From Faecalibaculum rodentium (GTDB taxonomy: Bacteria > Bacillota_I > Bacilli_A > Erysipelotrichales > Erysipelotrichaceae), in NCBI RefSeq assembly GCF_001564455.1, contig NZ_CP011391.1, positions 720,001-752,000 on the forward strand: a stretch of 32,000 bases of DNA, given 5' to 3'. Both the position numbers and the translations under genes were made by a program. Position 1 is the stretch's first letter. Each line of letters opens with the position of its first letter. The notes beneath the pieces were generated by a model. The model was not told the origin of the DNA. It searched no databases and was given only the letters and a program-made list of their open reading frames with translations. Positions 1,001 through 17,930 of the stretch are shown here, piece by piece.

Positions 1001-1076
1001 GCCGACTTAGCACAGCTGGTAGTGCAACGCACTCGTAACGCGTAGGTCATAGGTTCAAGTCCTGTAGTCGGCACCA
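1001..1076 (+). tRNA. tRNA-Thr (anticodon CGT), CCA encoded
   Basis: Hand-folded cloverleaf: acceptor gccgact/agtcggc, anticodon loop ctCGTaa, T-arm atagg-ttcaagt-cctgt, terminal acca. Confidence 0.9.
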
Positions 1077-1085
1077 TTTATAAAT

Positions 1086-1161
1086 GGTCCAGTGGTGTAG
1101 TGGTTAACATGCCTCCCTGTCACGGAGGAGATCGTGGGTTCGAGTCCCATCTGGACCGCCA
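1086..1161 (+). tRNA. tRNA-Asp (anticodon GTC), CCA encoded
   Basis: Acceptor ggtccag/ctggacc, anticodon stem cctcc/ggagg with loop ctGTCac, T-loop gggttcgagtccc, terminal gcca. Confidence 0.9.
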
Positions 1162-1166
1162 TTTTT

Positions 1167-1240
1167 GCAGATGTAGTTCAATGGTAGAACACGACCTTGC
1201 CATGGTCGATACGGGGGTTCGATTCCCCTCATCTGCTCCA
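1167..1240 (+). tRNA. tRNA-Gly (anticodon GCC), CCA encoded
   Basis: Acceptor gcagatg/catctgc, anticodon stem cgacc/ggtcg with loop ttGCCat, T-loop gggttcgattccc, terminal tcca. Confidence 0.9.
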
Positions 1241-1322: not shown

Positions 1323-1353
1323 AGCTGTGTGCATACTTGCACACAGCTTTTTG
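1323..1353 (+). terminator. Perfect 11-bp palindromic hairpin plus T-run at the island left end (insulating terminator or operator)
   Basis: agctgtgtgca-tact-tgcacacagct followed by ttttt, about 60 nt upstream of the first island gene. Confidence 0.5.
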
Positions 1354-1410
1354 TCGTTTAGGCAGCTGTGGTTGCCCTTCCCTTTTAACTCGGATCACGG
1401 AGGAACGGAT

Positions 1411-2094
1411 ATGAACGGACTCATCAGAAATATGTGGACTAAGTTTTGCAAAGATTACTCATTAGATAACGTTTTAAGGATGATAGAAACATGGAGTGAA
1501 ATGTCGCTGCATAATGCAGACCTGATCAGCTATGCTCCATCGACCAGTCCCAGGTTTGACACTGTACAGACAAATCCGACACTAGGGAAGGATAGGCAAC
1601 TAGATCTGCTTTGCAAATTTTGGAAAGACCTTGAAATCTATCGTCTTGTTAAGTGCGCGCTGGAGAAAATGGCAAACTCTGATCAGGAAAAATTCGTAGA
1701 AGCTTTTCGTTACGGACTTGTCGGTACGCAAACTCTGGAGCTGATCCAGCAGGAACTGATAGTTCTGCTTTCCGCAAACCTAGCCAATTATCCGTATGCC
1801 CAGACAATACTCAATGATTACAGCGATAGGCGAGATGATGTTGTGCAGCGGCTGAATTGCAGCTGGAAAGCGGTTCGGAAAGTTATTCCAGAGATGGTGT
1901 CAAAGCATAAATCCTTTTTTGAGGATCATTTTACATCAGAAGAGATCAGCACTCTGATATCTACTAACGACTGGCAGCGAAAGAGGAATGTTTCATTGCT
2001 GATCCTGTATCTGGAAGGAGAAATATCCAGATCAGAGCTTACGAAAGTCCTGAAAAACGTCCGCGGCGGCAAGAAGCTGCTCAGCCGGATATGA
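1411..2094 (+). CDS. Hypothetical island protein (227 aa); the C-terminal segment weakly resembles a sigma-70 region-4/HTH
   Basis: ATG at 1411 lies downstream of ggagg (1399-1403). No family recognised. C-terminal LLILYLEGEISRSELTKVLKNV is HTH-like by eye only. Confidence 0.6.
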   Translation: MNGLIRNMWTKFCKDYSLDNVLRMIETWSEMSLHNADLISYAPSTSPRFDTVQTNPTLGKDRQLDLLCKFWKDLEIYRLVKCALEKMANSDQEKFVEAFRYGLVGTQTLELIQQELIVLLSANLANYPYAQTILNDYSDRRDDVVQRLNCSWKAVRKVIPEMVSKHKSFFEDHFTSEEISTLISTNDWQRKRNVSLLILYLEGEISRSELTKVLKNVRGGKKLLSRI

Positions 2095-2105
2095 GGTAGC
2101 CGATT

Positions 2106-3590
2106 ATGAATGCAAAAGATGTAATCAGCTATATCCATGCAGATATGGATAAAAAATACCGCCTCCAGGATACAACGGAATGCCATGCGGCGATCCTGAA
2201 AGACTGGATGAGGAATGATGCCTTTCTTCCGGATCAGGATGTAGATGTCCTGCGTCTCAAATATGATGACGCCTATATGGGAGATTACGAACACGGATTT
2301 CATGACCTCTGTTTTAGACAGGATATGTTCATCCGATATATCGAGCAGGCAGCCAATGGGGAAGAGGATGTCTACTTTTCCATCAACTCTTTTTGGAACA
2401 CGAAGAGAACAGAAGCTAACATCCGTCATCTGAATGCCTTTGTCATTGACTACGATTATTACAAAATTGCTGAATATGCAGATCTGTCAGCTGCAGAGAT
2501 GTATCAGCAACACATTAGGCCGTCTTTGGTCATAGATCCAACCTTCGTGATCGACTCTGGGCGCGGTCTGTATTGTATATTCTGCATCGATCATGCGCCC
2601 TATGCATGTACTGGTCTTTATAAAGCAATCTACAGCAAGCTCGTAGAGTCACAGGAGCGATTTGGAGCGGATCCTAAGGCCATGCTGACTACACAGGTCA
2701 TAAGAGTACCAGGCAGCATCAACAGCCGCTCAGGGCGGACCGTGGCCGTTCTGGAAGCCAAAGACCAGAGATATACACTCTCTGAGCTGGCACACCAGTT
2801 CTTACCTTATACACGGCAGCAGGTGCGGGACTATAAGCGGGAAAAGGCGAAGGCTGCATTTGGGCAGGCTAAAAAGGCTGCAGCAGGCAAAAGAAAAGCT
2901 AACAGGTACCAGTCGGAGCTGGCAGAGCTGGAATCGGATCTCATTGCCCTGATTTCCATGCGCAATGATGTCGGAATCACGGTTGGATACCGTGAGGTGC
3001 TGCTGTACCTCTACTGGGAGCGTGCAGCAAAAACGAAAATGGAAGAGGAGTCTATCACCAAAAAAATCCTATGGCTGAATAGTCTTTTCACCATGCCTTT
3101 GACAGAGAAAGAGGCACTGAGCAGATGCAGACCGGCACAGAATTACCGATTCTTAACCGCCCGTGAAAAGATGGTGAGAAAACTTGGGGTCACGGATGAG
3201 GAACAGGGAAAACTGAAATTTCTTGTAAACAGGACGCTCAGAGATTCTTTACGACAGGCTAAGTCCAGAAAAAAGGCCCGTATCAAGCACAAGGGCCGTA
3301 CAGCTGCCCAGGAAGCCAGATATAACCGGCGCTGTGCTCTACTTAAGGGGCTTGACCAGGGATTGGATCTGCAGGCTCTCTCACAGTCTCTGGGAGTGAC
3401 CAAAAAGACGTTACGCAATGACTGCAAGTACATCCTTAGCCACCATGCGGAGTTTGCGGCAGTCATCAAGGCAATCAAGCAAACATTGAGGTATACAATC
3501 AAGACACTGCGTACAGAAGAAACACATAGTGACTATACAGATAAAGAATATCCGAAATGTCAACAATTTGATTACTTTATCAGGCGGTAG
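2106..3590 (+). CDS. Primase-polymerase (AEP)-like replication protein with a basic/HTH-like C-terminal region
   Basis: Motif order fits AEP prim-pol proteins: YFSINSF...NAFVIDYDY (DxD), IDSGRGLYCIF (sGxG), IRVPGSINSRSG (RxPGxxN). Confidence 0.6.
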   Translation: MNAKDVISYIHADMDKKYRLQDTTECHAAILKDWMRNDAFLPDQDVDVLRLKYDDAYMGDYEHGFHDLCFRQDMFIRYIEQAANGEEDVYFSINSFWNTKRTEANIRHLNAFVIDYDYYKIAEYADLSAAEMYQQHIRPSLVIDPTFVIDSGRGLYCIFCIDHAPYACTGLYKAIYSKLVESQERFGADPKAMLTTQVIRVPGSINSRSGRTVAVLEAKDQRYTLSELAHQFLPYTRQQVRDYKREKAKAAFGQAKKAAAGKRKANRYQSELAELESDLIALISMRNDVGITVGYREVLLYLYWERAAKTKMEEESITKKILWLNSLFTMPLTEKEALSRCRPAQNYRFLTAREKMVRKLGVTDEEQGKLKFLVNRTLRDSLRQAKSRKKARIKHKGRTAAQEARYNRRCALLKGLDQGLDLQALSQSLGVTKKTLRNDCKYILSHHAEFAAVIKAIKQTLRYTIKTLRTEETHSDYTDKEYPKCQQFDYFIRR

Positions 3591-3707
3591 GTGGTCGGGA
3601 AAAAATATGTCACAGCAATGGTATCTGTGTCTCGAGCGTGGGCCGCCCTGGCGGCAATCAACTACTACCTGTTTAATGCGCGAACGCTTTCGAAGAGGGA
3701 GGAACTT

Positions 3708-4028
3708 ATGAATAAAAAAGAGAATAAAAAAGAACTTCTTGATGAAGTCCGAAGGATCGCAAATTCTTTGGAACCGGCAGCTCTGTGGCTGCTGGACCAC
3801 CCATGCGGTTTTGGTAAAACGAAATGGTCAGATAACAGCTGCACATCAGCTGAAGATATGGCCGCCTGGATGGTATCTGTACCTGATGATCTGAGAGAAG
3901 CGGTTGCTTTTCTGGAACCTGCTGCAAAAAGTCTCCTGGATCCACTGATGATGACCAATGCTCTGATGATTGTGATGGAATCTGGAATCACTGATATCAA
4001 CAGGAAATTGTCTAAATCTGAGAGATAG
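3708..4028 (+). CDS. Hypothetical protein (106 aa)
   Basis: ATG at 3708 lies after gagggagg. The upstream part of the 3591 ORF overlaps the previous gene end and lacks an RBS. Confidence 0.55.
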   Translation: MNKKENKKELLDEVRRIANSLEPAALWLLDHPCGFGKTKWSDNSCTSAEDMAAWMVSVPDDLREAVAFLEPAAKSLLDPLMMTNALMIVMESGITDINRKLSKSER

Positions 4029-4080
4029 AACTATGTGGGAATAATCTGCAATAAAAATTTTGGCCAGAAGGGTTCATGAA

Positions 4081-4212
4081 TTTTTATTGCTTGTATGGCT
4101 TTTATCAACGCTTTTATTGTTACCACACCCCGTTTGTCTGCAAGGGTACGCTGTCGCCTGCCTGCGGCAGCCCTTGCTGACTGCACTCTCGGCGTGGAAC
4201 GAAGAAATCAGA
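4081..4212 (+). repeat. Structured intergenic module, copy A (divergent)
   Basis: Shares tttattgct, cttttattg, ccacac, tgcaagggtacgctgNcgcctgcc-NNN-ggcagcccttgc, gtgg and cgaagaaatcaga with copies B and C. Hairpin is 4123-4197. It ends about 28 nt before the ATG of 4241. Confidence 0.8.
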
Positions 4213-4240
4213 GAAACACATTCCTGCAGGAGGTAAAAAC

Positions 4241-4609
4241 ATGAAGCTATTTGAAGTTGGTAAGGAATATTTCATCGGTAATGCAGCGTACACGGTGGTT
4301 AAGCGGACAGCTAAAACCGTAACACTAAAACACTATGGCGAAACCAAACGGTACAGCGTAAAGGCTTGGCCTTGCGGTGAAGTGGTTCTCACTGACGGAA
4401 CTACGCTGTATGCCAGCCATGATGAAGCATGGCAGAAGAGAATCGCAGAAAGAGAAATGCAGGAAGAAGCCGCAGCAGCAGCCTACAGAAGCGCAGGCGA
4501 AGCGGCAGACGCTAGACAGTTCCAGCGGCTATTGGACTGTGGAATAGCCCCAAATGCTGCGATTGCAGTCATGAATGAGATGAGAGAAAGTATTTCTATC
4601 TGTGGGTAA
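4241..4609 (+). CDS. Hypothetical protein (122 aa) with an Ala/Glu-rich C-terminal half
   Basis: Strong RBS gcaggaggt upstream of the ATG. It lies 24 nt upstream of the Rpn-like gene. Confidence 0.65.
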   Translation: MKLFEVGKEYFIGNAAYTVVKRTAKTVTLKHYGETKRYSVKAWPCGEVVLTDGTTLYASHDEAWQKRIAEREMQEEAAAAAYRSAGEAADARQFQRLLDCGIAPNAAIAVMNEMRESISICG

Positions 4610-4633
4610 CAATCAGCAAAAGGAGGTGAGCAG

Positions 4634-5401
4634 ATGTTAGAAATATCTGATGAAAAACTGGAAATCATTCTGTCGATGACTGCGTTTGACAATGCGTTCA
4701 TCAGAACGTTTTTTGATAGAAATACCGTGGAGTTTCTTCTTAGGCTGATTTTGAAAAAGCCGGAGCTTTCTGTAGAAACTGTTACGTTTGAGCATGTACT
4801 GGATGACCCGGTTTCAAAAGGTGTGCGGCTGGATATTCGTGCTGTGGATGATGCGGGGAATTGGATGGATATAGAGTTTCAAATCAATCCCCGGGAAGTG
4901 AACGGCAGGCGCTTACGGTATTATCACAGCCGGATGGATGTTCAAATGCTGGAGAGAGGCAAGCAATATACAGAATTGGCAGACGCCTGTGTGATTTTCA
5001 TTTGCCGAGGTGACCCAATCGGAAAAGGCAAGCCGATGTACTGTTTCCAGATGAAAGACCAGGACAATGAGGTTCTGGAAGATGGACAGCTAACGCTGAT
5101 TCTCAATGCAGATTTTCCCGGAGACTGGGAATATAAAAATCTTATGGAGGATTTGAAGAGTGCAGATTCAAAAGATATGCACTATGATGTTCTTAAAGAA
5201 CGGATGCAAACCGTCAAAGAAAAGGAAGGTGAAATCATGGAAGCCGGGCACGTTTTAGAAGATTATCTGAAGAAACAGGAAGACAAAATGAAATCGGAGA
5301 TTGTCGCAAATATGCTTAAAGATAAAATGCCGGAAGAGACTATCGTACGTCTGGCGGTTGTCTCCCCGGAATTTGTAAAGCAAGTACAAGCGACTATGTG
5401 A
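4634..5401 (+). CDS. Rpn/YhgA-like PD-(D/E)XK nuclease (putative transposase family PDDEXK_2)
   Basis: Core KGVRLDIRAVDDAGNWMDIEFQ...RRLRYYHSRM...YTELADACVIFI fits the D...(D/E)xQ/K nuclease core of Rpn-family proteins. RBS aaaggaggtga. C-terminal helical tail EIVANMLKDKMPEETIVRLAVVSPEFV. Confidence 0.75.
   Translation: MLEISDEKLEIILSMTAFDNAFIRTFFDRNTVEFLLRLILKKPELSVETVTFEHVLDDPVSKGVRLDIRAVDDAGNWMDIEFQINPREVNGRRLRYYHSRMDVQMLERGKQYTELADACVIFICRGDPIGKGKPMYCFQMKDQDNEVLEDGQLTLILNADFPGDWEYKNLMEDLKSADSKDMHYDVLKERMQTVKEKEGEIMEAGHVLEDYLKKQEDKMKSEIVANMLKDKMPEETIVRLAVVSPEFVKQVQATM
5237..5401 (+). CDS. Candidate internal in-frame translation product (54 aa C-terminal peptide) of the Rpn-like gene
   Basis: In-frame ATG at 5237 is preceded by aaaggaaggtga, which is Shine-Dalgarno-like. 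Confidence 0.3.
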   Translation: MEAGHVLEDYLKKQEDKMKSEIVANMLKDKMPEETIVRLAVVSPEFVKQVQATM

Positions 5402-5408
5402 TTATGAA

Positions 5409-5431
5409 AGTGGCAAACCTGCCACTTTTTT
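5409..5431 (+). terminator. Rho-independent terminator (GTGGCA...TGCCAC family)
   Basis: agtggca-aacc-tgccact followed by ttttt. Confidence 0.7.
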
Positions 5432-5433
5432 AA

Positions 5434-5601
5434 TTGGCTGGAAATGAAGATTTGAGGATTGTCCTGGAGCTTTTATTGCTCTTATTTCTCTTATTCAGGC
5501 CCTTATTGATCCCACACACCGCTTGTATGCAAGGGTACGCTGACGCCTGCCCATGGCAGCCCTTGCATCCTATGCTTGCTGTGTGGGGCGAAGAAATCAG
5601 A
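5434..5601 (+). repeat. Structured intergenic module, copy B
   Basis: Aligns without gaps to 5938-6105 (offset 504) with 4 substitutions. Hairpin 5511-5588: outer stem cccacaca/tgtgtggg, middle stem gcaaggg/cccttgc, apical stem ctgcc/ggcag. Confidence 0.9.
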
Positions 5602-5617
5602 AGGAGAGGTAAATACT

Positions 5618-5896
5618 ATGACCCAAAAAAAAGAATGGCTTCCGCTGGGTACGGTAGTCACCATGAAAGAAGGAGTTAAACGGCTGATGATTGTTGGGCG
5701 TATTCAGCGAGGAAGTGATGACCTTCTTTATGACTATGCTGGTGTACTCTGGCCGGAAGGGATGATTCGCAGCGACCGCCTGTATCTCTTTAACTATGAG
5801 GACATTGATATCCTCTGGAGCATTGGATATCAGGAGAAGGAGGAATTCAATTTCCGTCATGTTCTCAACGAGCAGCACGATATTCTTCATGAATAG
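5618..5896 (+). CDS. DUF4176-like small protein (92 aa)
   Basis: LPLGTVVTMKEG...LMIVGR...YDYAGVLWPEG...LFNYEDIDILWSIGYQ resembles the DUF4176 pattern common in Bacillota. RBS aggagagg. Confidence 0.65.
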   Translation: MTQKKEWLPLGTVVTMKEGVKRLMIVGRIQRGSDDLLYDYAGVLWPEGMIRSDRLYLFNYEDIDILWSIGYQEKEEFNFRHVLNEQHDILHE

Positions 5897-5911
5897 AATC
5901 TGATTTCAAAA

Positions 5912-5935
5912 GTGGTGGCAAACTTGCCACTTTTT
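5912..5935 (+). terminator. Rho-independent terminator (GTGGCA...TGCCAC family)
   Basis: gtggca-aact-tgccac followed by ttttt. Confidence 0.7.
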
Positions 5936-5937
5936 AT

Positions 5938-6105
5938 TTGGCTGGAAATGAAGATTTGAGGGTTGTCCTGGAGCTTTTATTGCTCTTATTTCTCTTATTC
6001 AGGCCCTTATTGATCCCACACACCGCTTGTATGCAAGGGTACGCTGACGCCTGCCTATGGCAGCCCTTGCATCCTGTGCTTGCTGTGTGGGACGAAGAAA
6101 TCAGA
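5938..6105 (+). repeat. Structured intergenic module, copy C
   Basis: Near-identical to copy B. Hairpin is 6015-6091. Confidence 0.9.
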
Positions 6106-6134
6106 GAGAGCGAACAGCTCAGGAGGAAATAACA

Positions 6135-6446
6135 ATGATGAATGTATTCTGTATTGCGGGAAAATTAGCTGGGGAACCTGCCGTTAGTGAAACACCGGGC
6201 GGTCTTAAAATGGCCTTGCTTACAGTTGAAGTAGAACGCCCGTTCGCAAATTCAATGGGCATCTATGAAAAGGATAAAATCCAGATTGAGGTATGGAGAG
6301 GACTGGCAGAAATGCTTGCATCAACCTGCAAACAGGGAGATTGGGTGACCGCTAAAGGCCGCATTGCATCCCGTCCATACGAAAAAGATGGAAAAGTCTG
6401 GAATAACTATAACTTTGTTGCGGAACGCGTTGACGTGCTGAAGTGA
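6135..6446 (+). CDS. ssb: Single-stranded DNA-binding protein, short form (OB fold only, no acidic C-terminal tail)
   Basis: MMNVFCIAGKLAGEPAV...LTVEVERPF...IQIEVWRGLAE...KQGDWVTAKGRI...YNFVAERVDVL matches the SSB OB-fold pattern. RBS aggagg. Confidence 0.8.
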   Translation: MMNVFCIAGKLAGEPAVSETPGGLKMALLTVEVERPFANSMGIYEKDKIQIEVWRGLAEMLASTCKQGDWVTAKGRIASRPYEKDGKVWNNYNFVAERVDVLK

Positions 6447-6461
6447 ACCGGAGGAGATAAC

Positions 6462-6710
6462 ATGAGTAAACTTGAAAGACTGAAAGCTCTTCTGGATGAA
6501 GAGTTTGATATGGAATCTGTAGCGGCTGATGATTTCGGAGAGGCAAGAAATCTTGCCTATGATTTGGCCGAAGAACTGAACGTTCTTGAAACGGATGAGG
6601 ATGGAAATGAGTACATCCTTGGCCGACTGGTTCACTATTCCGGCACTGCTGGGGCTTACTGGAACCAGGAAGCAGGTCGATACAAGCGGTTCTGGACGAT
6701 TGCAGAATAG
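6462..6710 (+). CDS. Small, strongly acidic hypothetical protein (82 aa)
   Basis: RBS ggaggag. By hand count about 19 D/E versus 8 K/R. It starts 15 nt after ssb. Confidence 0.65.
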   Translation: MSKLERLKALLDEEFDMESVAADDFGEARNLAYDLAEELNVLETDEDGNEYILGRLVHYSGTAGAYWNQEAGRYKRFWTIAE

Positions 6711-6715
6711 CAGAG

Positions 6716-6739
6716 AAGCGGTGCAAATCCGCTTTTTTT
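6716..6739 (+). terminator. Rho-independent terminator
   Basis: agcgg-tgcaaat-ccgct followed by tttttt. Confidence 0.65.
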
Positions 6740-6758
6740 AATCCAGAGATATGTGTTT

Positions 6759-6797
6759 CTTTATTGCTTTTATTTCTCTTATTTTTGCCCTTATAGC
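6759..6797 (+). repeat. Structured intergenic module, copy D (5' part only, truncated by IS66)
   Basis: ctttattgcttttatttctcttatttttgcccttat matches the upstream third of copies B and C and stops at the IS66 left inverted repeat. Confidence 0.75.
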
Positions 6798-6870
6798 GTA
6801 AGCGACGTTAATTACCCATCTATGACAAATCCCTCCGTAGCGGGACAATACCGGCACGGAGGGATTTTAC

Positions 6871-7224
6871 ATGACTGGACTTGATGATATTTCCCGATTA
6901 TACCTGGTCACTGAACCTGTGGACTTTCGCAAAGGCATAGATGGACTGGGTACATATGTCCAGTCGATCCTGAACACTGATCCATTCCAGAATGCGATGT
7001 TCGTCTTCACCAACAAACGACACAACAAGCTCAAGCTCCTCCATTATGACGGTACAGGGTTCTGGCTCCTTCACAAGCAGCTGAGCAAAGGAACCTTCAA
7101 ATGGCGGATGAGTTCCCCGGATCCGTTTCTGCAGATCTCCCCACAGCAGCTGGACTGGCTTTTGGAAGGACTGGACATAAACCAGAAGCGGGCTTTCAGG
7201 CATGTGATGCCTCAATATATCTAG
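6871..7224 (+). CDS. tnpB: IS66 family accessory protein TnpB (Orf2)
   Basis: LVTEPVDFRKGIDGLGTYVQ...MFVFTNKRHNKLKLLHYDGTGFWLLHKQLSKGTFKW is the conserved IS66 Orf2 signature. Confidence 0.9.
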   Translation: MTGLDDISRLYLVTEPVDFRKGIDGLGTYVQSILNTDPFQNAMFVFTNKRHNKLKLLHYDGTGFWLLHKQLSKGTFKWRMSSPDPFLQISPQQLDWLLEGLDINQKRAFRHVMPQYI

Positions 7225-7348
7225 ACAGATCTCCTGATCCCTGACGGTTTTCAGTCATATCGAATGAACCATTTCTGGAACTGTGAGCATAATAATTATT
7301 TAAGGCATTTCAGTTTGCCCCTTTTCCTCTTTATCCTATACTTTTGCC

Positions 7349-9022
7349 ATGGACTTCTTATCTTCTTTTGACTTCGAAAACTACACCCGCAAATCCATGA
7401 AAGAAAGCCTCGAATCTCTGGATCATGATGACCTGGTCGATGCCGCTCTCTTCCTGGCCGACAACCTGTTCCTGAAAGACCAGATCAACAGGAAGGCGGC
7501 CATGGACCGCTTCGCTTCCAAAAGCGAGCAGCTTTTCATATCCCTGTTCAACGAGGCGGAAGAGATCGCATCCACGTCTTCTCCCGAAGACCTGGATGAA
7601 TCAGCTGTCCTGGAAACTGTGAGCAAAGAGAGACCGGCGTCCCCCAAAAAGCGCAGATCCATGAAGGAGAAAGCAAAGGCGCTTCCTGAAAAGATCATCG
7701 ATGTGTATCCGGATGCAGGCAAGGACCCGGTGTGCCCTGTATGTGGCACAGCCATGAAGGAGCTGAAACCGACTGTACACCGGACCATCAAATACGTTCC
7801 GCAGCGCCTCTATGTCGAAGTGGAAGTGGATCATAATTATGTCTGCCCCAAAGGTTGTGAAGATGAGGATGGAAAGCCTGTGATGATCCCGGCTGCCCGC
7901 AAAGAAGCACCGCTTCTGGAGAATACGATGTCTTCGCCTTCTCTTGTGTCCCACATCATAGCCCAGAAAACAGTCATGGGACTGCCTCTTTACAGACAGG
8001 AACAAGACTGGCAGCGAAGAGGATTCAACCTCAGCAGGAGTATCATGGCCAGCTGGATGATCCGTTCTTCCCAGATCTATGGAGAAGCTCTGGTGGACAG
8101 GATGATACAGGATTTCAGGGAATGTGATGTGGTCCATATGGATGAGACCGTACTGAAATGCCTGGAAGTGAGTCGGGATCAGGATCGGACGAACTGTTAC
8201 ATGATCGTCGGGGTCAGCGCAGAGCATGAAGCCAGACAGATGGTCATATATCAGTTCAAGAAGAGCAGGGCCCAGAAGTTCGTATGGGAATTCCTGGGAG
8301 AAGGATTCGAAAAGGCCCTGATGTCAGACGGATTCGAAGGCTACGATAATTACACAGCAGCCATCCATCTGAGTTGTATGGCCCATGCGAGGCGGCATCT
8401 GTATGATGCGGTGAAGATCCGTGCAGACTACCAGACATTCAAGAATCTGCCAGACGATACAGAAATGAAACTGAAACATATCAGGGAGAATCCGGCACTG
8501 GGGATCCTGTTGGAGCCACTTGGGAACATCAACAGGCTTTATGAGGTGGAGAGCAGAGCGAAAAAGAAGAAACTGAGTCGGGAAGAAGTATACGAACTGA
8601 GGCAGAAAGAGTCTAAACCGCTTTTTGACCAGGTGATCGCAGGAATGGAGCGGATCGCCCGGAGTTTTGATAGTGGTTCGAAAGCAGTAAAGGGAGCAAA
8701 CTACTTCCTGAAAAGGAAAGACTCGCTGGCCCTTTATCTGGAGGATGGGAACTATCCGATCGACAATAACCTGGCGGAGCGGATGGTGAAGCCGTTCGTG
8801 ATAGGCCGGAAGGGGTTCCTGTTTGCGGACACGGAAGCAGGAGCGGAAGCAACAGCAGTATGGTACAGTCTGAGCCAATCGGCAATCATGAATGGGCTGG
8901 TGCCTGAGAAGTACATCGAATATGTGCTGACAAGGCTGAAGAACGAAGGGATCAGAGAGGAAGTACTCGAAGACCTGCTTCCATACTCCAGGACACTTCC
9001 AGGACATCTGTATAAGAAATAG
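7349..9022 (+). CDS. tnpC: IS66 family transposase (TnpC)
   Basis: 557 aa with an N-terminal coiled-coil/leucine-zipper-like region and CPVCG...C zinc motif. Also VHMDETVLK, CMAHARRHLYDA and NNLAERMVKPFVIGRKGFLF, typical of IS66 DDE transposases. Confidence 0.9.
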   Translation: MDFLSSFDFENYTRKSMKESLESLDHDDLVDAALFLADNLFLKDQINRKAAMDRFASKSEQLFISLFNEAEEIASTSSPEDLDESAVLETVSKERPASPKKRRSMKEKAKALPEKIIDVYPDAGKDPVCPVCGTAMKELKPTVHRTIKYVPQRLYVEVEVDHNYVCPKGCEDEDGKPVMIPAARKEAPLLENTMSSPSLVSHIIAQKTVMGLPLYRQEQDWQRRGFNLSRSIMASWMIRSSQIYGEALVDRMIQDFRECDVVHMDETVLKCLEVSRDQDRTNCYMIVGVSAEHEARQMVIYQFKKSRAQKFVWEFLGEGFEKALMSDGFEGYDNYTAAIHLSCMAHARRHLYDAVKIRADYQTFKNLPDDTEMKLKHIRENPALGILLEPLGNINRLYEVESRAKKKKLSREEVYELRQKESKPLFDQVIAGMERIARSFDSGSKAVKGANYFLKRKDSLALYLEDGNYPIDNNLAERMVKPFVIGRKGFLFADTEAGAEATAVWYSLSQSAIMNGLVPEKYIEYVLTRLKNEGIREEVLEDLLPYSRTLPGHLYKK

Positions 9023-9110
9023 AAAACAGGACTGTCCCCAATACCATGATGGTACAGGGAATCAGTCCTGTTTTAATATGGGCAATTAACGTCGCTTACA
9101 GTATATGAAG

Positions 9111-9136
9111 AAAAGGTGGCAGAACTGCCACCTTTT
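9111..9136 (+). terminator. Orphan terminator hairpin of the GTGGCA...TGCCAC family directly after IS66
   Basis: aaaaggtggca-gaac-tgccacctttt. No gene precedes it in the present arrangement. Confidence 0.5.
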
Positions 9137-9484: not shown

Positions 9485-10495
9485 TTATCGACTGATTCCC
9501 CTGTCAGTACTCAGTGGCCTGTATCCTAACTTTCTCATTTCGGCATTATTTGTGCTTTTAATTCTGCTGATAATTCTGTCTTGTTCATGAGGCGTTAGAT
9601 CTTTATATGCTAGTCGAACATAGGCTTTTAATAAGACCTGGTTATACCGGATTTTGATAGATTCAATCATAGCTTTCTTACGTATATCAGACATGAAAGG
9701 TGTGCTCTGAATCGTTGTATATATATTGGCTAGATTGATTCTGGGAAATATTTCCAGGATGGATTTTTCCAAATCGGGATTTGGAGAGGATAGTACTTCC
9801 TGGAATGAAAGACGTTGGCCATTTGTAGAATTGGCAAAGGGAGTAAAGACTTCTTTGCTCTTTCCAGTAAAATGCCTCGTATGGATTTCCTCGCGTAAAT
9901 CGTCATCACTCATCAACGGGAATAGGGATGATCCACAGTCGTATACTGGTGCAATGGTTTGTTGACCATTATCTTGAACAGCCACTCCCCAGTTTTCCAA
10001 ATGACGATCGTAATTAGCTATTAGGTAATCTACTACGAACATGTTCCAAAAATGCTTTACAGCAGCTTGCTCCAAGTCTGGATTTTCCAGTTCATGAATG
10101 ATTTCATATACCCGGTCAATTGTTATTCGTCTGGTCTTGTTGCTTGTGCTCCAAGGATCGCTTGAATGAATAAACTTCATTGGATACAGCTCGATTCCAT
10201 CATTTTTAAAGTCCCGACAAGCTACTGCGATAAATTCACGGTCGTTATATGTACTTTTGCCCAGGTATGTTTTTTGCACAGGTATACCTATAGACTCATA
10301 GATATGACATCCAACATATTCAGAAAATTGATTGTTTATGTAGGAGAGAGAAGAATTCTTCTCTCTGATGGGGTCGGGATATTTGAGCATGTAGACTGTA
10401 CCTTTGATTGTCAGCCTCCGTTTTCTCTCAGACCCACTATAATTGCTCCATTCGTTGGTTCCAGACGAGAAATCAAGGATACCCTCTTGATTCAT
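9485..10495 (-). CDS. HipA-like serine/threonine kinase (toxin-type, short form, 336 aa)
   Basis: YSGSERKRRL (SGxQxK-like loop), VVDYLIANYDRHLENWGV (DxHxxN catalytic loop) and APVYDCGSSL (Mg-binding D) match the HipA_C kinase core. Confidence 0.75.
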   Translation of the reverse strand: MNQEGILDFSSGTNEWSNYSGSERKRRLTIKGTVYMLKYPDPIREKNSSLSYINNQFSEYVGCHIYESIGIPVQKTYLGKSTYNDREFIAVACRDFKNDGIELYPMKFIHSSDPWSTSNKTRRITIDRVYEIIHELENPDLEQAAVKHFWNMFVVDYLIANYDRHLENWGVAVQDNGQQTIAPVYDCGSSLFPLMSDDDLREEIHTRHFTGKSKEVFTPFANSTNGQRLSFQEVLSSPNPDLEKSILEIFPRINLANIYTTIQSTPFMSDIRKKAMIESIKIRYNQVLLKAYVRLAYKDLTPHEQDRIISRIKSTNNAEMRKLGYRPLSTDRGISR

Positions 10496-10725
10496 GCGAG
10501 GAACCCCAGAAAGTACTCCAACATTTCATCTCTTTTTTTGGTTGTTATGATGCCATCACTGGCAATTACTTTGAGTGAAGTTCTTAAAGCCATCATGTCG
10601 TTTTGCAAATCGAATTTGTCAGAGATTGATCTGCTTTTCTGCCAGCGATCAGCGTCCTGATAGACCTTCTCCATGAACTCGCCTGCATACCAGTCATAGT
10701 CTGCGGGATTATATTTTCTTTCCAT
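10492..10725 (-). CDS. Hypothetical 77-aa protein translationally coupled to the HipA-like kinase (candidate antitoxin/partner)
   Basis: ATGA overlap with the kinase start (10492-10495). RBS aaggaga. No HTH recognisable. Confidence 0.6.
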   Translation of the reverse strand: MERKYNPADYDWYAGEFMEKVYQDADRWQKSRSISDKFDLQNDMMALRTSLKVIASDGIITTKKRDEMLEYFLGFLA

Positions 10726-11073: not shown

Positions 11074-11640
11074 ATGGCCAGAATAGGGTATATCCGTGTT
11101 TCTACTGTAGACCAGAATTTGGACCGTCAAATCGCGTTGATGGAATCGCTTGGGATCGAGAAGATTTTTCAGGATGAGTCCTCTGGCAAGAACATGGACC
11201 GTCCTGGGCTCTCTGCAATGCTGGCTTATATTCGGCCAGGGGATGAAATACACGTTGAATCCTTTTCCCGGTTGTCCAGATCCACGGCTGAACTCTTGCA
11301 GACTGTCAATGATCTCATGGATAGAGGAATCCATCTGATTAGTCACAAGGAAAACCTGGACACGACAACAGCCTCTGGACGACTCATGCTGACAGTATTT
11401 GCTGCCATAGCCCAATTTGAACGGGAAATCACCCTGGAACGTCAGAAAGAAGGAATTGCAGCAGCTAAAGCCAGAGGAGTTTATAAAGGACGGGCCAGGA
11501 AGCCTGATACTCCGGAACTGAAAATGGCCATAAAGGGGTGGGAATCTGGCGAAATATCAGCTGCGGATGCGATTCGCATCAGTGGATTAAGTAAATCTGC
11601 ATTTTATGAGCGTACGAAGGGGTATCTTCGTAAAAAATAA
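11074..11640 (+). CDS. Small serine recombinase (resolvase/invertase family) with C-terminal HTH
   Basis: MARIGYIRVSTVDQNLDRQ...GDEIHVESFSRLSRS...GRLMLTVFAAIAQFEREI...RQKEGIAAAKARGVYKGR is the canonical resolvase catalytic domain. RBS aggaga. Confidence 0.9.
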   Translation: MARIGYIRVSTVDQNLDRQIALMESLGIEKIFQDESSGKNMDRPGLSAMLAYIRPGDEIHVESFSRLSRSTAELLQTVNDLMDRGIHLISHKENLDTTTASGRLMLTVFAAIAQFEREITLERQKEGIAAAKARGVYKGRARKPDTPELKMAIKGWESGEISAADAIRISGLSKSAFYERTKGYLRKK

Positions 11641-11686
11641 CTCATTGGTCCTGTATCATCTTTCGTTAAATAGTTATCATCTTATT

Positions 11687-11708
11687 GCGGCAGAAATGCC
11701 GCTTTTTT
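11687..11708 (+). terminator. Rho-independent terminator
   Basis: gcggca-gaaa-tgccgc followed by tttttt. Confidence 0.65.
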
Positions 11709-12698
11709 ATTTGGAGGAGAATAATTTGAAAAGAATTACAGCTATCTATGTACGTGTTTCTTCGCGTGAGCAGGCGTTACAGGGTTACTCTCTGGATGCG
11801 CAAGAATTGAAGTGTCGTCAGTACGCAGATCTAATGGGATATGATACTGAAAATTTGGTTTTATACAAAGATGATGGGTTCTCAGCAAAATCACTGAATA
11901 GACCTCGAATGCAAGACCTGATCAAGGGAATCAAAGATGGAAAAATTGTCCGGGTCATAGTTTACAAACTGGATCGACTGACAAGAAGCGTTACGGATGT
12001 GTATCAGTTGATGCAGATGTTTATGGATTTTGATTGCGAGCTGAAAGCTATTGTTGATAGTCTGGATCTTACCTCAGCCAATGGTCGGATGTTGGTTGGG
12101 ATGTTGTCTATCATCGCCCAGTGGGAGAGAGAAGTGATTTCCGAAAGGACAAAGGATGGATTGGCAGAAAAGGTCAATCAGGGAAAATATCCTTACGGAG
12201 GCAGAGCGCCCTTTGGATGGGATAAGCAGAAAGATGGGAAACTCTGCATCAATGAAGAACAGGCATCCATCAAGAATGCAGCAGGCGACTGGATTCTTGA
12301 AGGGTACAGTTTGAGCAGGGTTTGCGAGTTGGTCCAGGAACACTATGGCTATAAACCGACATTCGACTCGTTGAAGCGTTACATGGAAGATGAAAAGAAT
12401 ATTGGGATTCTGGTTTATAACGGTGAGCGGAAAGTGGATTTTGTCCCTGCATTGATGGATGACAACAAGTTCCAGGAAGTCCAGTATTATCTGTCATTCC
12501 GCGCTCATCACGCACCGTTCAAAAGCAGATATATTTTCCATTCACTTGTTTATTGCACCAAGTGTGGTAGTCGCTTAGATCAGCGGTCCACGGTCAAAAA
12601 GCAAGGCGCAGAAAGAAAGAGGTATTTCTATTATTCTTGTCCCAATTGCTCGAAAAGGATCAGCCAGAAGATTCTGATCGAACAGACTTTTTTTCATT

Positions 12699-13008
12699 CA
12701 TGGACCTCGCATGCGAGGTCCACCCTTGGATCAGTGAAACTTAGATGGGGCCGTTCCGGCCCCTGTTATATTTATCTTGCCGGAGCTGGTGAGAGCACGA
12801 TACACATTTATTCCATGCGGACTTCTCACACAGTCTTCATGAGATTGTTTTTTTATAAGTCGCCGTTGATCTAAATAGTATCCCTGGGTAGAAATTCATC
12901 ACGAATATTCTGAACATTTTGTATAGGCTGTCGGTTTTTTCTCGACAAGTTCAATGGATGGATCAACTTCCACTCCGGCATTTTTTTGTTTGAGAGGAGT
13001 TTTCGACC
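12699..13008 (+). ncRNA. Non-coding left end of the IS110 element; candidate bridge (guide) RNA locus
   Basis: No plausible ORF. Hairpins at 12702-12721 and 12747-12763. Stem 12789-12794/12824-12829 encloses a loop. Segments 12810-12822 and 12837-12856 echo the IS-end and target sequences. Confidence 0.4.
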
Positions 13009-14430
13009 ATGGCTGTTCGTAACAGAAAACCGGTCTGTGTCGGTTTGGATGTCCATAGAAATAATGTCTGGGCCTGTGTGACCTTCAAAGATCCGGCCAA
13101 AGGGAAAGACGGGCTTGTGTTCGTCACCAAAAAATTTGACTCAAATCATACAGATCTTGCCTCAATGTGTGAATGGATCTATACAACTCTTCCGGATCTG
13201 GAAGACAGAGCGATAGATGTTTATATGGAATCGACCGGAAAGTATTCCACCCCTGTTTTTGATGTCTGTGAGGAAATGGGATTGAAACCCCATATCGTCA
13301 ACCCAAAGCATGTCCGGACCATAGCCGGACAAAAAACGGACCAGAAAGACTGTGCCTGGATCGCTGAACTTGGGGCCAACGGTCTGTTGAGAGAGTCATA
13401 TATCCCGGTCCGGGAGCTTCGGGAATCCAGAAGGCTCTCACGGTCCAGAACTAAACTGGTACAGGAAAGAGGGGATACGATCCGAAGGATCCGGAATATT
13501 CTGACAGAAGCGAATATCCGTATGGATCTTGTTTTTTCCGGGATCGAAGGAGAGTCGGCCCGAAGTGTGATCGAATACCTGCTCACGACAGAGGAACCGG
13601 ATTTGGAGGAAGTGAAAAAGCGGATACGGAAAAGCTGCCGGATCATGCGGTTCTCCACCCATAAAGAGCGCAAAGAAAAAGAAGAAGAACTTCGCAAAGC
13701 ATTCGCTGGTGCAAAGTTCTCCTCCGTCCAGAAATTCGAGCTTGAAAATGCGTATGAAAGAGTTGACCGACTCACTGCGCAAATCCAACGCTACGAACAA
13801 ATGATGACGGAAATTCTCGAACCATTCAAGTCCTATCTTGATTTGCTTGATTCCATCCCGGGAATCTCCGGGCTTTCGGCGATGCAGATACTAAGCGAAA
13901 CAGGAACAGACATGGGACAGTTCAAGAACGAGAAGCACTTCATAAGCTGGTGTGGACTGTGCCCTCAAAGCAATCAGAGCAACAACAAACATAAATCGGT
14001 CAAAATTGGAAAAGGCGGATATTATCTAAAGCCTGTGTTGATTCAATGTGCTCTGAACGCAGTGAAGCACCCATATTTCAAGGGGAAGTATGAGGCTATC
14101 GCAGCCCGACGCGGTAAAAAACGCGCATTGATTGCGATTGCGAGAAAGATGATGGTTCTTGCCTATCATATGTTCCAGACAGGTGAATATTTCCAAGAGA
14201 GAAAGAAACAGATCCCGGCGGTATTGGAAAAAGAACAGAGTGAGCGGGAACAGAGTATGGAGACATCAGCAGAGGCAACAGATGCTCCGGCAATTATCAG
14301 GACCGCAAAAGAGATCGTAGAGATGCTGCAGAATACAGATGATGAGATGAAACACAAGATAGAGCAGTTACTGGCCCAGATAGGAATTGCTCAATGTGAA
14401 TATCAAACTGGAGCGATATCAACGATTTAG
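13009..14430 (+). CDS. IS110 family transposase/recombinase (DEDD RuvC-like N-domain plus Tnp C-domain)
   Basis: N-terminal VCVGLDVHRNN...ESTGKYS...DQKDCAWIAE. C-terminal LLDSIPGISGLSAMQILSETGTDMGQFKNEKHFISWCGLCPQSNQS...KGG..LK is the IS116/IS110/IS902 signature. RBS gagaggag. Confidence 0.9.
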   Translation: MAVRNRKPVCVGLDVHRNNVWACVTFKDPAKGKDGLVFVTKKFDSNHTDLASMCEWIYTTLPDLEDRAIDVYMESTGKYSTPVFDVCEEMGLKPHIVNPKHVRTIAGQKTDQKDCAWIAELGANGLLRESYIPVRELRESRRLSRSRTKLVQERGDTIRRIRNILTEANIRMDLVFSGIEGESARSVIEYLLTTEEPDLEEVKKRIRKSCRIMRFSTHKERKEKEEELRKAFAGAKFSSVQKFELENAYERVDRLTAQIQRYEQMMTEILEPFKSYLDLLDSIPGISGLSAMQILSETGTDMGQFKNEKHFISWCGLCPQSNQSNNKHKSVKIGKGGYYLKPVLIQCALNAVKHPYFKGKYEAIAARRGKKRALIAIARKMMVLAYHMFQTGEYFQERKKQIPAVLEKEQSEREQSMETSAEATDAPAIIRTAKEIVEMLQNTDDEMKHKIEQLLAQIGIAQCEYQTGAISTI

Positions 14431-16926: not shown

Positions 16927-17930
16927 ATGAATATCGTGGTTGCGGGAGTCTGAAAAGCCGGTCACGCCCTGGTCCGTCAGCTGGATGCAGAGGGACATGA
17001 TGTCACGGTGATCGAGAGCAAAAGCCAGGTTCTCGAACAGACGCCGGATTATCTGGATGTAGTCGGACTCCAGGGCAGCGGCATGGATGTGGATGTCCTG
17101 CGGGAAGCAGGGGCTGCGAAAGCCAATCTTGTGATTGCGGCGACAAGCACCGATGAAACCAATATTGTCATCTGCCTTCTCGGCCGGGGCCTGAAGGAAG
17201 TCATGATCGCAGGGGGATCACGCATTGCGGCCTATCTCGCCACCAGACTCCTGGATATGAACATTGCGGTAAAAATCATCGAAAAGAACCCGGACGAGGC
17301 ACTCGATCTCACCCTCCGCTTTCCTGACGTCACGGTCATATGCGGAGATGGCACGGATCAGGCCACACTGCTTTCAGAGAATCTGGATGGAATGGACGGC
17401 TTCGTGTCCCTGACGGACAACGGTGAGGAAAATGTCATCATTTCCATGTTTGCAGAACAGCAGGGCGTGGAACATGTGGTGCCGAAGGTCAATCGTGTGG
17501 AACTCGGGTTTCTGCTGGAAAAACCGGGCTTCTCCAATGCCGTGACACCGAAGAACATAGCGGCAGACAAAATCGTTCAGTATGTACGTGCGATGCAACA
17601 CTCTGTGGGTTCCAACGTAGAATCCATTATTCTCGCCGCCGACGGCCAGATGGAAGTGCCGGAGTTCCGCGTGGCGTCCAATTGCCGGTTCATCGGCAGA
17701 CAGGTGAAGGATCTGCTTCTGAAAAGCGGTATTCTGGTCTCTTTCATCACACACAAATCCCGTCCTATGGTTACCCGGGGAATACCTGTGTCAAGCAGGG
17801 GGATTCGCTGATTGCTGTATCGAAAGTGAAAGGACTGCGTGACATCAATGACGTTCTCTTTGCGCCGAATGGCAAGGAAACTGAACTGGCGGGTCATTCT
17901 GCAGGTTCTGGGATTCGCGGTTCTTTTTGA
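16927..17930 (+). pseudogene. trkA: trkA (K+ uptake NAD-binding subunit), decayed
   Basis: ATG 16927 follows gggagg. An in-frame TGA (16951-16953) sits at the middle Gly of GxGxxG (AGV*KAG). The first TrkA_C domain appears missing (ETNIVICLL joined to KEVMIAGGSRIA). The frame shifts near 17760-17780 (ITHKSRP / YPGNTCVKQGDSLIAVS). Confidence 0.7.

Follow-up and report, generated by a model that had tools for sequence, protein, structure and literature searches.

A structured intergenic module is repeated four times in a genomic island of Faecalibaculum rodentium, within a stretch of 32,000 nt (contig NZ_CP011391.1, positions 720,001 to 752,000), which is called the window and to which all coordinates given without a locus label refer. 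The island is the left stump of an integrative and conjugative element (ICE), and the module is very probably the cis-regulatory head of the gene cassettes in the leading region of this ICE. As a more specific mechanism it is tentatively proposed that the module could unite a Frpo-like hairpin promoter, active as single-stranded DNA (ssDNA), with operator heptamers for a Reg576-like repressor.

In a first-pass annotation three full copies (A, B and C) and a fourth copy (D), truncated by an IS66 element, had been noticed, and all four were found again at the same positions. A repeat search of the window yielded a 180-nt family at 4038-4217 (66% identity), 5427-5606 and 5931-6110 (96%), and a 35-nt T-rich family, the fourth copy of which is located at 6760-6794. 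Each full copy consists of a T-rich heptamer array, a hairpin and a tail, with arrays and tails read on the plus strand. In module A the array of TTTATTG.. repeats occupies 4083-4118, the hairpin with its outer, middle and apical stems and its asymmetric bulge 4121-4199, and the invariant tail CGAAGAAATCAGA 4200-4212, followed by a ribosome-binding site (RBS) and an ATG at 4241. Module B has four YTTATTN heptamers with a 9-nt period (5472-5509), the hairpin (5510-5588) and the same tail (5589-5601), which directly abuts the RBS, so that the gap of 15-30 nt that had been described is wrong for this copy. In module C the array, also with a 9-nt period (5976-6013), is followed by the hairpin (6014-6092), the tail (6093-6105), a small GAGCG..GCTC hairpin and the RBS. 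Of module D only the array was retained (6760-6797), while hairpin, tail and the remaining ICE were lost; an intact D is present in a related element (locus L055, 10626-10745). Tandem Repeats Finder likewise assigned a 9-nt period to the T-rich blocks of modules B, C and D, and the window heptamers read TTATTGC-TC-TTATTTC-TC-TTATTCA. Four differences between B and C were confirmed by an alignment, and none of them lies in a stem pair; the two copies are about 97% identical across 180 nt, including the upstream terminator, and A is about 66% identical.

Folding reproduced the three-tier hairpin with its outer stem, the middle stem GCAAGGG/CCCTTGC and the apical stem CTGCC/GGCAG, as well as the 11-nt asymmetric bulge TACGCTGNCGC and the tail. 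The fold energies of B and C were below those of dinucleotide shuffles (z scores of -2.5 to -5.2), while copy A folded more weakly (-1.4 to -2.6). With DNA parameters, B and C reached z scores of -5.2 on the minus strand and of -3.4 to -4.2 on the plus strand.

The comparison of homologues strongly supported the view, put forward in the first-pass annotation, that this is a selected secondary structure. In the hairpin family of the window itself (17 sequences) 90.4% of the cells were paired, compared with 30-47% after sliding of the partners; 18 of 27 pairs had changed on both sides, and none of 500 shuffles reached the observed covariation. When all families were included in a model-fitted alignment of 74 distinct sequences, 90.2% of the cells were paired (32-46% in the slid controls), and every one of the 27 pairs covaried, so that the lack of compensatory substitutions in homologues, which had been named as evidence against the proposal, was not encountered. 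The covariation spans lineages whose relaxases are just 31% identical, and the mean z score with DNA parameters was about -5 over 77 modules. Three adjacent inner-stem pairs, CAA/TTG, were nearly invariant (70-71 of the 74 distinct rows), and the neighbouring pairs varied freely. The 8-nt motif YGAAGAAA, which directly follows the last pair, was 99-100% conserved in 77 distinct copies, and the apical regions contained conserved motifs that are specific for the respective family, e.g., TGCCCTACGGCGTCTCG. The architecture is therefore conserved, while the hairpin sequence is not. One copy (L084, 956-1053) has a 3′ arm that is the perfect complement of its 5′ arm, including the positions of the usual internal-loop mismatches, and its minimum free energy (MFE) with RNA parameters was -44 kcal/mol, compared with about -25 kcal/mol in sister copies; this suggests that it arose by intra-hairpin template switching or gene conversion.

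Labels such as L055 designate loci with related elements, which were ordered by the identity of their relaxases: 87% (L067), 46% (L167), 44% (L070 and L074) and 41% (L071-73 and L080-86), with more distant relatives at 32% (L170) and 31% (L078). In all of them nearly every inter-cassette gap of about 200 bp upstream of mobC and the relaxase gene has the same layout, i.e., terminator, heptamers, hairpin, YGAAGAAA, small hairpin and RBS, with three to four YTTATYN heptamers separated by 2-nt spacers and a hairpin of 75-90 nt. A covariance model that was built solely from the hairpin type of the window was run over 872 kb. It detected the three full copies in the window (4119-4213, 98 bits; 5508-5602, 97.6 bits; 6012-6106, 101.4 bits) and none in its chromosomal part. 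The numbers of modules upstream and downstream of the putative origin of transfer (oriT) core were 5+1 in L055, 12+1 in L067, 6+1 in L078 and 7+2 in L081, and hairpins of other types were detected at weaker scores. All genuine matches were on the relaxase strand; the few matches on the opposite strand overlay the same palindromic hairpins and had lower scores.

The module is thus restricted to one ICE family. The covariance model found no match in loci whose relaxases are just 27-30% identical. An 18-mer of the hairpin core had no true match in 185,579 GTDB species genomes, and the 54 loci retrieved were all chance matches in unrelated genes. The comparison with Rfam, which had been recommended, was performed for the window and five relatives both at the gathering threshold and at E <= 10, and it returned tRNAs only and nothing plausible for the module. 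Module B had no blastn match in a phage collection, a tblastn search with the relaxase retrieved nothing from plasmids, two DNA patterns and one relaxase profile found nothing in IMG/VR, and no description of such a module was found in the searchable literature. This distribution already contradicts the idea of a plain dispersed repeat (repetitive extragenic palindrome or miniature inverted-repeat transposable element) without a dedicated function, which would fit a repeated, palindromic and intergenic sequence and for which a scatter irrespective of gene context had been predicted. The matches were instead confined to ICE cassette arrays, in a single orientation and always between a terminator and an RBS; they were absent from the 18 kb of chromosomal DNA in the window and from the loci with distant relaxases. 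Together with the 18-mer result and the covariation across relaxase lineages with 31% identity, this makes a dispersed repeat hardly credible.

Exact-sequence look-ups with the SSB and DUF4176 proteins of the window (246 and 159 index blocks, respectively) led to many contigs of gut metagenomes from mice and humans. In intact relatives the element continues beyond the cassettes of the window with a 58-aa open reading frame (ORF), a DUF3846 gene, a 110-aa OB-fold ORF, a gap of about 630 bp and a NikA/MobC-like gene, followed by a PF03432 relaxase gene, ParB/ParA-like genes and a SpaA/TED adhesin gene, from which it follows that the island is the left stump of an ICE. Beyond A to C the intact relatives carry two further modules, D and E, which have the same heptamer block and tail but a hairpin of unrelated sequence; the hairpin lost from module D of the window was accordingly, in the intact relatives (L055), of another sequence type than A to C. 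Among the cassette genes of the family are those for SSB, ArdC (L078 and L170), DarA_C together with Fic, PemK, RadC, ParB_N, Amidoligase_2, DUF3846, DUF4176 and PD-(D/E)XK proteins, and the content of the relatives is typical of leading-region and anti-defence genes (compare PMC11541004).

Each element contained a single copy of an oriT-like core, AGCAAGCAAG, which was confined to the plus strand of the gap preceding mobC and was followed by an inverted or direct repeat pair. The candidate oriT was located at 12259-12320 in L055, 9180 in L067, 8646 in L071, 9058 in L078, 3130 in L167 and approximately 2779 in L170, the invariant core being followed by GGGNTTTGTAC.. repeats or an inverted repeat. 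A literature search with the core sequence gave unrelated matches only. GCAAGGG is common to the candidate oriT and the middle stem of the hairpin type of the window, and a GATTTTCTTCRAAAATC palindrome about 45 nt upstream contains the tail motif on the opposite strand; both may be coincidences. A sixth heptamer array was present between the last cassette and oriT (L055, 11960-12045; L067, about 8900-8990). Downstream of this array lies a different, perfect hairpin (GGAGATTTTATTTCGCC...GGCGAAATAAAATTTCTCC), which has neither tail nor RBS, and this region may control the oriT/mobC-relaxase operon.

In well-studied oriTs the nicked strand carries the inverted repeat 5′ of the core, and relaxase operons normally enter the recipient last. 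Since the inverted repeat follows the core on the plus strand, it precedes the core when the minus strand is read 5′ to 3′, which is the order on known nicked strands. Both rules taken together indicate that the minus strand would be the transferred strand, that the cassette array would be the leading region, and that the transferred strand would serve as template. Transferred strand and template are identical in the F/ColIb arrangement (PMC9849209, PMC11541004), and the opposite is true for pLS20 (PMC8708921). The likeness to the leading region of a transferable element that had been pointed out was thus supported by the position of the co-oriented array directly upstream of the oriT-like core, mobC and the relaxase gene in intact relatives, while the transferred strand was deduced from these rules.

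The first-pass annotation had left open whether the structure is formed by RNA or by ssDNA, and two kinds of statistical evidence, the polarity of wobble pairs and the scarcity of G-U intermediates, favoured ssDNA. One-sided changes of the G-C to G-U type, which are common in RNA families, were found in just 24 cells, of which the terminal pair alone accounted for 17, compared with 477 double changes. To compare mismatches, the hairpins were first folded with nothing but Watson-Crick pairs allowed, after which the mismatches that lie within helices or extend them were classified. On the plus strand of the module hairpins, A·C was found in 65 cells (31 contexts) and G·T in 16 cells (11 contexts) when all positions were considered, and the numbers were 17 and 0 for internal 1x1 mismatches. 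At the internal helix positions of the model-fitted alignment 23 A·C stood against 7 G·T, a count that is conservative because this alignment is biased toward G-U. In contrast, the terminators located about 60 nt upstream on the same strand, which are true plus-strand RNA structures, exhibited the reverse polarity with 6 A·C versus 16 G·T (Fisher p = 0.02 on distinct contexts). Nine distinct A·C types and three G·T types were found in the stems of the L071 subfamily (28 copies), in which non-stem transitions were balanced (21 versus 23), which argues against a mutational bias. As a plus-strand A·C is a G·T on the minus strand, the excess favours folding of the template strand. The MFE with RNA parameters also favoured the minus strand in 67 of 77 modules, a number that shrank to 49 under DNA parameters with composition control, so that this comparison is not counted among the main evidence. 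The small leader hairpin, used as an RNA control, showed a wobble polarity of 7 versus 7. Altogether, it can be stated with moderate confidence that the hairpin forms at the DNA level, on the template (minus) strand, rather than in the mRNA.

The same results make it very improbable that the module is an RNA-level element of the 5′ untranslated region, be it an antitermination signal of the put/EAR/conAn type, an mRNA stabilizer or a translation enhancer. As such it would permit transcription past the cassette terminators or increase the early output of protein. Such a role would agree with the conserved terminator of each cassette that directly precedes the next module, and with the purine-rich GAAGAAA(G) tail, which we take to match an extended anti-Shine-Dalgarno complement in part. 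In addition, stem-loops in the ardC leader of p576 raise expression two-fold (PMC6294495). An RNA hairpin is, however, at odds with the ratio of 24 G-U-type cells to 477 double changes and with the predominance among internal mismatches of A·C, a combination that does not pair in plus-strand RNA, while the adjacent terminators behave as RNA; moreover, no promoter was found upstream of the hairpin, and no Rfam match was obtained even at an E-value of 10.

A scan for sigma-70-like promoters of double-stranded DNA (dsDNA) found none in the modules of the window, in agreement with the earlier remark that neither arm contains a canonical -35/-10 pair. A sigma-54 promoter was rejected by hand reading, since the spacing in TGGCAG-N3-TTGC is too short by 2 nt, and sigma-H and extended -10 promoters were rejected on sequence reading. 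In the minus-strand hairpin the non-template arm contains the invariant TTG and, after 19-21 nt, an ATAA-containing element (AATAAG, TATAAG, TAAGAT or GATAAT), which is located at the stem base or slightly beyond it and faces the template sequence of the tail, to which it is not complementary. Judged from these motifs, the geometry of the hairpin resembles that of a pre-opened promoter from which transcription would start in GAAGAAA.

It is tempting to speculate how such a unit would work. During conjugation the template strand of the cassette genes, i.e., the minus strand of the window, would be brought into the recipient as ssDNA, and the inverted repeat of about 79 nt would fold into a DNA hairpin. 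The host RNA polymerase would read this hairpin as a single-strand promoter, with the inner-stem TTG as a -35-like anchor and the unpaired ATAA flank as a -10-like element. The transcript would begin in the YGAAGAAA tail and cross the leader hairpin and the RBS into the cassette before synthesis of the complementary strand. Upstream of the hairpin, the four heptamers, each of 7 nt with a 2-nt spacer, would be operators for a repressor encoded by the element, and this repressor would silence the unit after conversion to double-stranded DNA and establishment of the element. Promoter activity, start site and repressor binding are thus predictions from the arrangement of motifs. A broader claim is offered as a still more doubtful possibility, namely that the modules could represent a new class of ssDNA promoters, unrelated in sequence to Frpo, which would express every anti-defence and establishment cassette of Gram-positive (Clostridia) ICEs from the incoming strand, be recognized by their hairpin with its invariant CAA/TTG and conserved loop, start in GAAGAAA and later be shut off via Reg576-like operators.

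The closest known systems are the ssDNA promoters Frpo/ssi of F and ColIb-P9, reportedly described by Masai and Arai in 1997. Both systems comprise several near-identical non-coding inverted repeats before leading-region operons with ssb and anti-restriction genes, a stem-loop that is stable as ssDNA, and a -35-like TTG in the stem. Frpo copies precede leading operons and are located on the T-strand, which is the template (PMC9849209, PMC11541004), and the genes behind the module are oriented such that the predicted transferred strand would likewise be their template. In contrast to Frpo, with which it shares no sequence similarity, the module has a much shorter hairpin, no canonical -10 element and a spacing of 19-21 nt, and it contains in addition a heptamer array, an invariant GAAGAAA tail and apical loop motifs; it resides in a Gram-positive ICE with up to 13 copies per element. 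The promoter function of Frpo/ssi was shown by experiment, whereas the module is known from its sequence. The Frpo/ssi-type promoter that had been suggested in the first-pass annotation remains a candidate: context and folding speak for it, whereas the lack of a canonical -10, the lack of similarity to plasmids and the modules downstream of the relaxase gene speak against it.

Several observations weigh against an ssDNA promoter. Module B had no blastn match among 72,556 plasmids, which should include F-like plasmids, so that there is no similarity to Frpo-bearing plasmids. A canonical -35/-10 pair about 17 bp apart is not rebuilt in the stem, where only the TTG is conserved, and the best minus-strand readings (TTGCAT-19-AATAAG, TTGACC-20-TATAAG and TTGCAT-19-TAAGAT) lack T-7 and have spacers that are 2-3 nt too long. 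The minus-strand advantage in the DNA-parameter z score is a small effect (49 of 77 modules) and the asymmetry is moderate, the terminal pair is a plus-strand T·G in 17 rows, and the polarity test gave no decision between the strands when the family of the window was taken alone. A search for an element-encoded repressor with Pfam on the small ORFs and with PDB sequence searches for three candidates identified none. Lastly, TTGCCA-18-TACGAT, a sequence that is conserved in the 3′ arm of the L071 family, is a plausible dsDNA promoter, and modules also precede one to two operons downstream of the relaxase gene, which would enter last.

The latter two points are better accommodated by the main rival, a repressor-controlled dsDNA promoter with a structured leader, comparable to the zygotic induction of EGeRS2. 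A ribbon-helix-helix (RHH) repressor, possibly the NikA/MobC-like protein, would bind to the heptamers, a weak or non-canonical dsDNA promoter would be located within or beside the inverted repeat, the genes would fire transiently as long as the recipient lacks the repressor, and the hairpin would be a leader or operator rather than a promoter. The L071 promoter would start transcription in the tail, and modules downstream of the relaxase gene suit a general regulon better than an early-entry device. The Reg576 operators of the Bacillus plasmid p576 have the sequence TTATCCC-nn-TTATCCC (PMC6294495), and the design of heptamers with 2-nt spacers matches the dual motifs located before the establishment genes of p576, including ardC (PMC6294495, PMC8708921). 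In L078 and L170 the heptamers, TTATCCC/TTATCTT with 2-nt spacers, likewise precede ardC and other genes, in the window they read TTATTNN-nn, and the additional array between the last cassette and oriT/mobC points in the same direction. A repeated promoter or operator regulon, which had been listed as an alternative before, is therefore supported for the T-rich part of the module by the heptamer-plus-2-bp design of the p576 operators (PMC6294495). The resemblance extends to the repetition of a regulatory unit before each establishment operon of a Gram-positive conjugative element. However, the p576 heptamers abut the -35 box of a strong canonical sigma-A promoter, whereas in the module the covarying hairpin of about 79 nt directly follows the last heptamer, so that about 50 nt of covarying hairpin intervene, and no sigma-70-like promoter is present in the modules of the window or of most families. 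The 27 covarying pairs are left unexplained by a dsDNA promoter or operator, and an RNA leader would produce G-U pairs and plus-strand polarity, the reverse of what was observed. The establishment genes of p576 are oriented opposite to the conjugation genes, while the module cassettes are co-oriented with the relaxase gene. No Reg576-like gene was identified in the module-bearing elements, and Pfam and PDB sequence searches detected no RHH or helix-turn-helix regulator among the small ORFs, the only RHH-type Pfam match being the NikA/MobC-like protein; PDB searches with three candidates found nothing relevant. This explanation is regarded as rather unlikely.

With the EGeRS1 regions of the pLS20 family (PMC8708921) the module has in common a repeated inverted-repeat region directly upstream of the RBS of establishment operons and the lack of a strong sigma-A promoter. 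The EGeRS1 regions, which are homologous among the pLS20 family and pBS72 plasmids, have a length of 400-600 bp and many branches, whereas the module has about 170 nt and one main hairpin and no blastn match to plasmids; in addition, pLS20 transfers its non-template strand, which speaks against an ssDNA promoter in this plasmid, while the strand transferred with the module would be the template.

The evidence for DNA-level, strand-biased folding would be explained equally well if the hairpins were sso/ssi sites (single-strand origins or initiation sites) on the transferred strand, which recruit RNA polymerase or primase to make primers for the complementary strand and for which the proximity to genes would be secondary. 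The hairpins of ssoA/ssoU-type origins of rolling-circle plasmids and of sso1 of ICEBs1 are likewise strand-specific DNA structures; Gram-positive sso hairpins act as promoters for the host RNA polymerase when single-stranded, and Frpo also makes primer RNA (PMC4595007). The module hairpins have conserved apical motifs, TGCCCTACGGCG... and GCTGCGC. The defining motifs of such origins are RSB and CS-6, and the minus-strand CAGCGTA has a resemblance to the ssoA version of CS-6, TAGCGT. Known sso occur once or twice per replicon, produce short primers and have no tie to gene starts, in contrast to the 6-13 copies per element observed here, each of which is locked between a terminator and the invariant tail, small hairpin and RBS, and priming alone does not explain the heptamer arrays. 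Sites that serve priming in the first place are therefore considered improbable.

A cassette-boundary recombination site, either for attC-like single-strand recombination or as homology for cassette shuffling, is highly improbable. It would be in line with a cassette content that varies among close relatives with common junction units, with the near identity of B and C over 180 nt including the upstream terminator, and with the L084_1040 copy, the 3′ arm of which was converted to a perfect complement. Like integron attC sites, the modules lie at cassette boundaries, retain their structure while the sequence varies and show a strand bias, reminiscent of the folding of one strand of conjugated ssDNA. 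However, the elements have no IntI integrase (Pfam detected no tyrosine recombinase among the array genes) and no R′′/R′ or R/L core sites (RYYYAAC/GTTRRRY), and the module flanks YTTATTN and YGAAGAAA are not complementary core sites. The location at the 5′ (expression) end of the cassette, with the invariant tail beside the RBS at a fixed distance, indicates a role in expression, and ordinary homologous shuffling requires no hairpin. Taken together, the module shares logic with Frpo/ssi, EGeRS2, EGeRS1, sso and attC, but it fails at least one defining feature of each and matches none of them by sequence.

Early expression of anti-defence and establishment genes decides about the survival of a conjugative element in a new host. 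To our knowledge, ssDNA promoters for early expression are known experimentally only from F/IncI-type plasmids. In a large survey no Frpo-like sequences were found in a Gram-positive island (PMC11541004), and the regulatory regions of the pLS20 family are mechanistically unexplained (PMC8708921). If the proposed mechanism is true, the modules would be the first family of ssDNA promoters outside of proteobacterial plasmids and a possible answer to the question how promoter-less Gram-positive establishment regions, e.g., EGeRS1 of pLS20, are expressed. As a compact and highly repeated element of about 170 nt with clear covariation, the module could reveal the timing of leading-region gene expression in abundant ICEs of gut Clostridia. 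The modules could also flag unannotated anti-defence cassettes, as whatever follows a module is a candidate, and they could serve as portable parts for early expression when genes are delivered to gut Firmicutes by conjugation.

The three cassettes of the window are all encoded on the plus strand. Cassette 1 (4241-5401) comprises a 122-aa ORF with a weak similarity to DUF2849 and a 255-aa PD-(D/E)XK_2 protein, and it ends with an intrinsic terminator (GTGGCAAACCTGCCAC plus a T-run, 5410-5430) that lies within the repeated junction unit. Cassette 2 (5618-5896) encodes a DUF4176 protein of 92 aa and is followed by a terminator at 5915-5935, found as a repeat, with a terminator of the same type called at 5914-5931. 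Cassette 3 (6135-6710) encodes the SSB (103 aa) and an acidic 82-aa ORF, and its terminator (6716-6739) was recognized by direct sequence reading. The cassette terminators form a conserved family, (G)GTGGCA-N4-TGCCAC(C) plus a T-run, with members at 5410-5430, 5915-5935, 9116-9136 and 11687-11707. Further members were found in L071 (1544-1561, 3940-3957 and others), so that the family is common to ICE lineages with 41% relaxase identity, and the repeated junction unit seems to include the upstream terminator. In L159 (4680-6917) a second SSB paralogue of 126 aa is located behind a duplicate of module C, and an IS110-family element is inserted in the cassette array, which indicates ongoing cassette turnover.

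No Pfam match was obtained for the element's first three genes (255/227 aa, 494 aa and 145/106 aa; 1327-4028 in the window and 5178-7794 in L055), which are kept at the left end of all close relatives. The left end of the ICE adjoins three tRNA genes and an epimerase gene in the window (1001-1237) and in L055/L056, PTS/Mga genes in L057 (1-4700), and a gene for a 733-aa serine recombinase in L058 (1-4400); the element thus occupies several insertion sites.

On the right side the ICE is interrupted by the IS66-family element (TnpB, TnpC; plus strand, 6799-9099), which cuts module D at 6798/6799. The inverted repeats at both ends of the IS66 element are intact, and the flanks show no 8-bp target-site duplication, indicating that adjacent DNA was deleted; through this IS-mediated deletion the ICE probably lost its relaxase and transfer genes. 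The right flank is unrelated DNA with a 107-aa zinc-finger ORF and a HipA-like gene. In total, the window contains the three tRNA genes, genes without Pfam matches, the cassettes, IS66, the HipA-like gene, two serine recombinase genes and IS110, and its chromosomal part extends from trkA to polA. The genes to the right of IS66 are a mosaic of other mobile or defence-type genes, comprising a HipA_C-like kinase with a small upstream ORF (9485-10725, minus strand), a resolvase together with a 422-aa serine recombinase (11074-12874), and an IS110-family transposase (13009-14430). In the chromosomal part trkH is present as two adjacent ORFs (17839-18285 and 18300-19589), which cover positions 22-100 and 109-490 of the TrkH profile; the split may be due to a frameshift or a sequencing error, or trkH may be a pseudogene.

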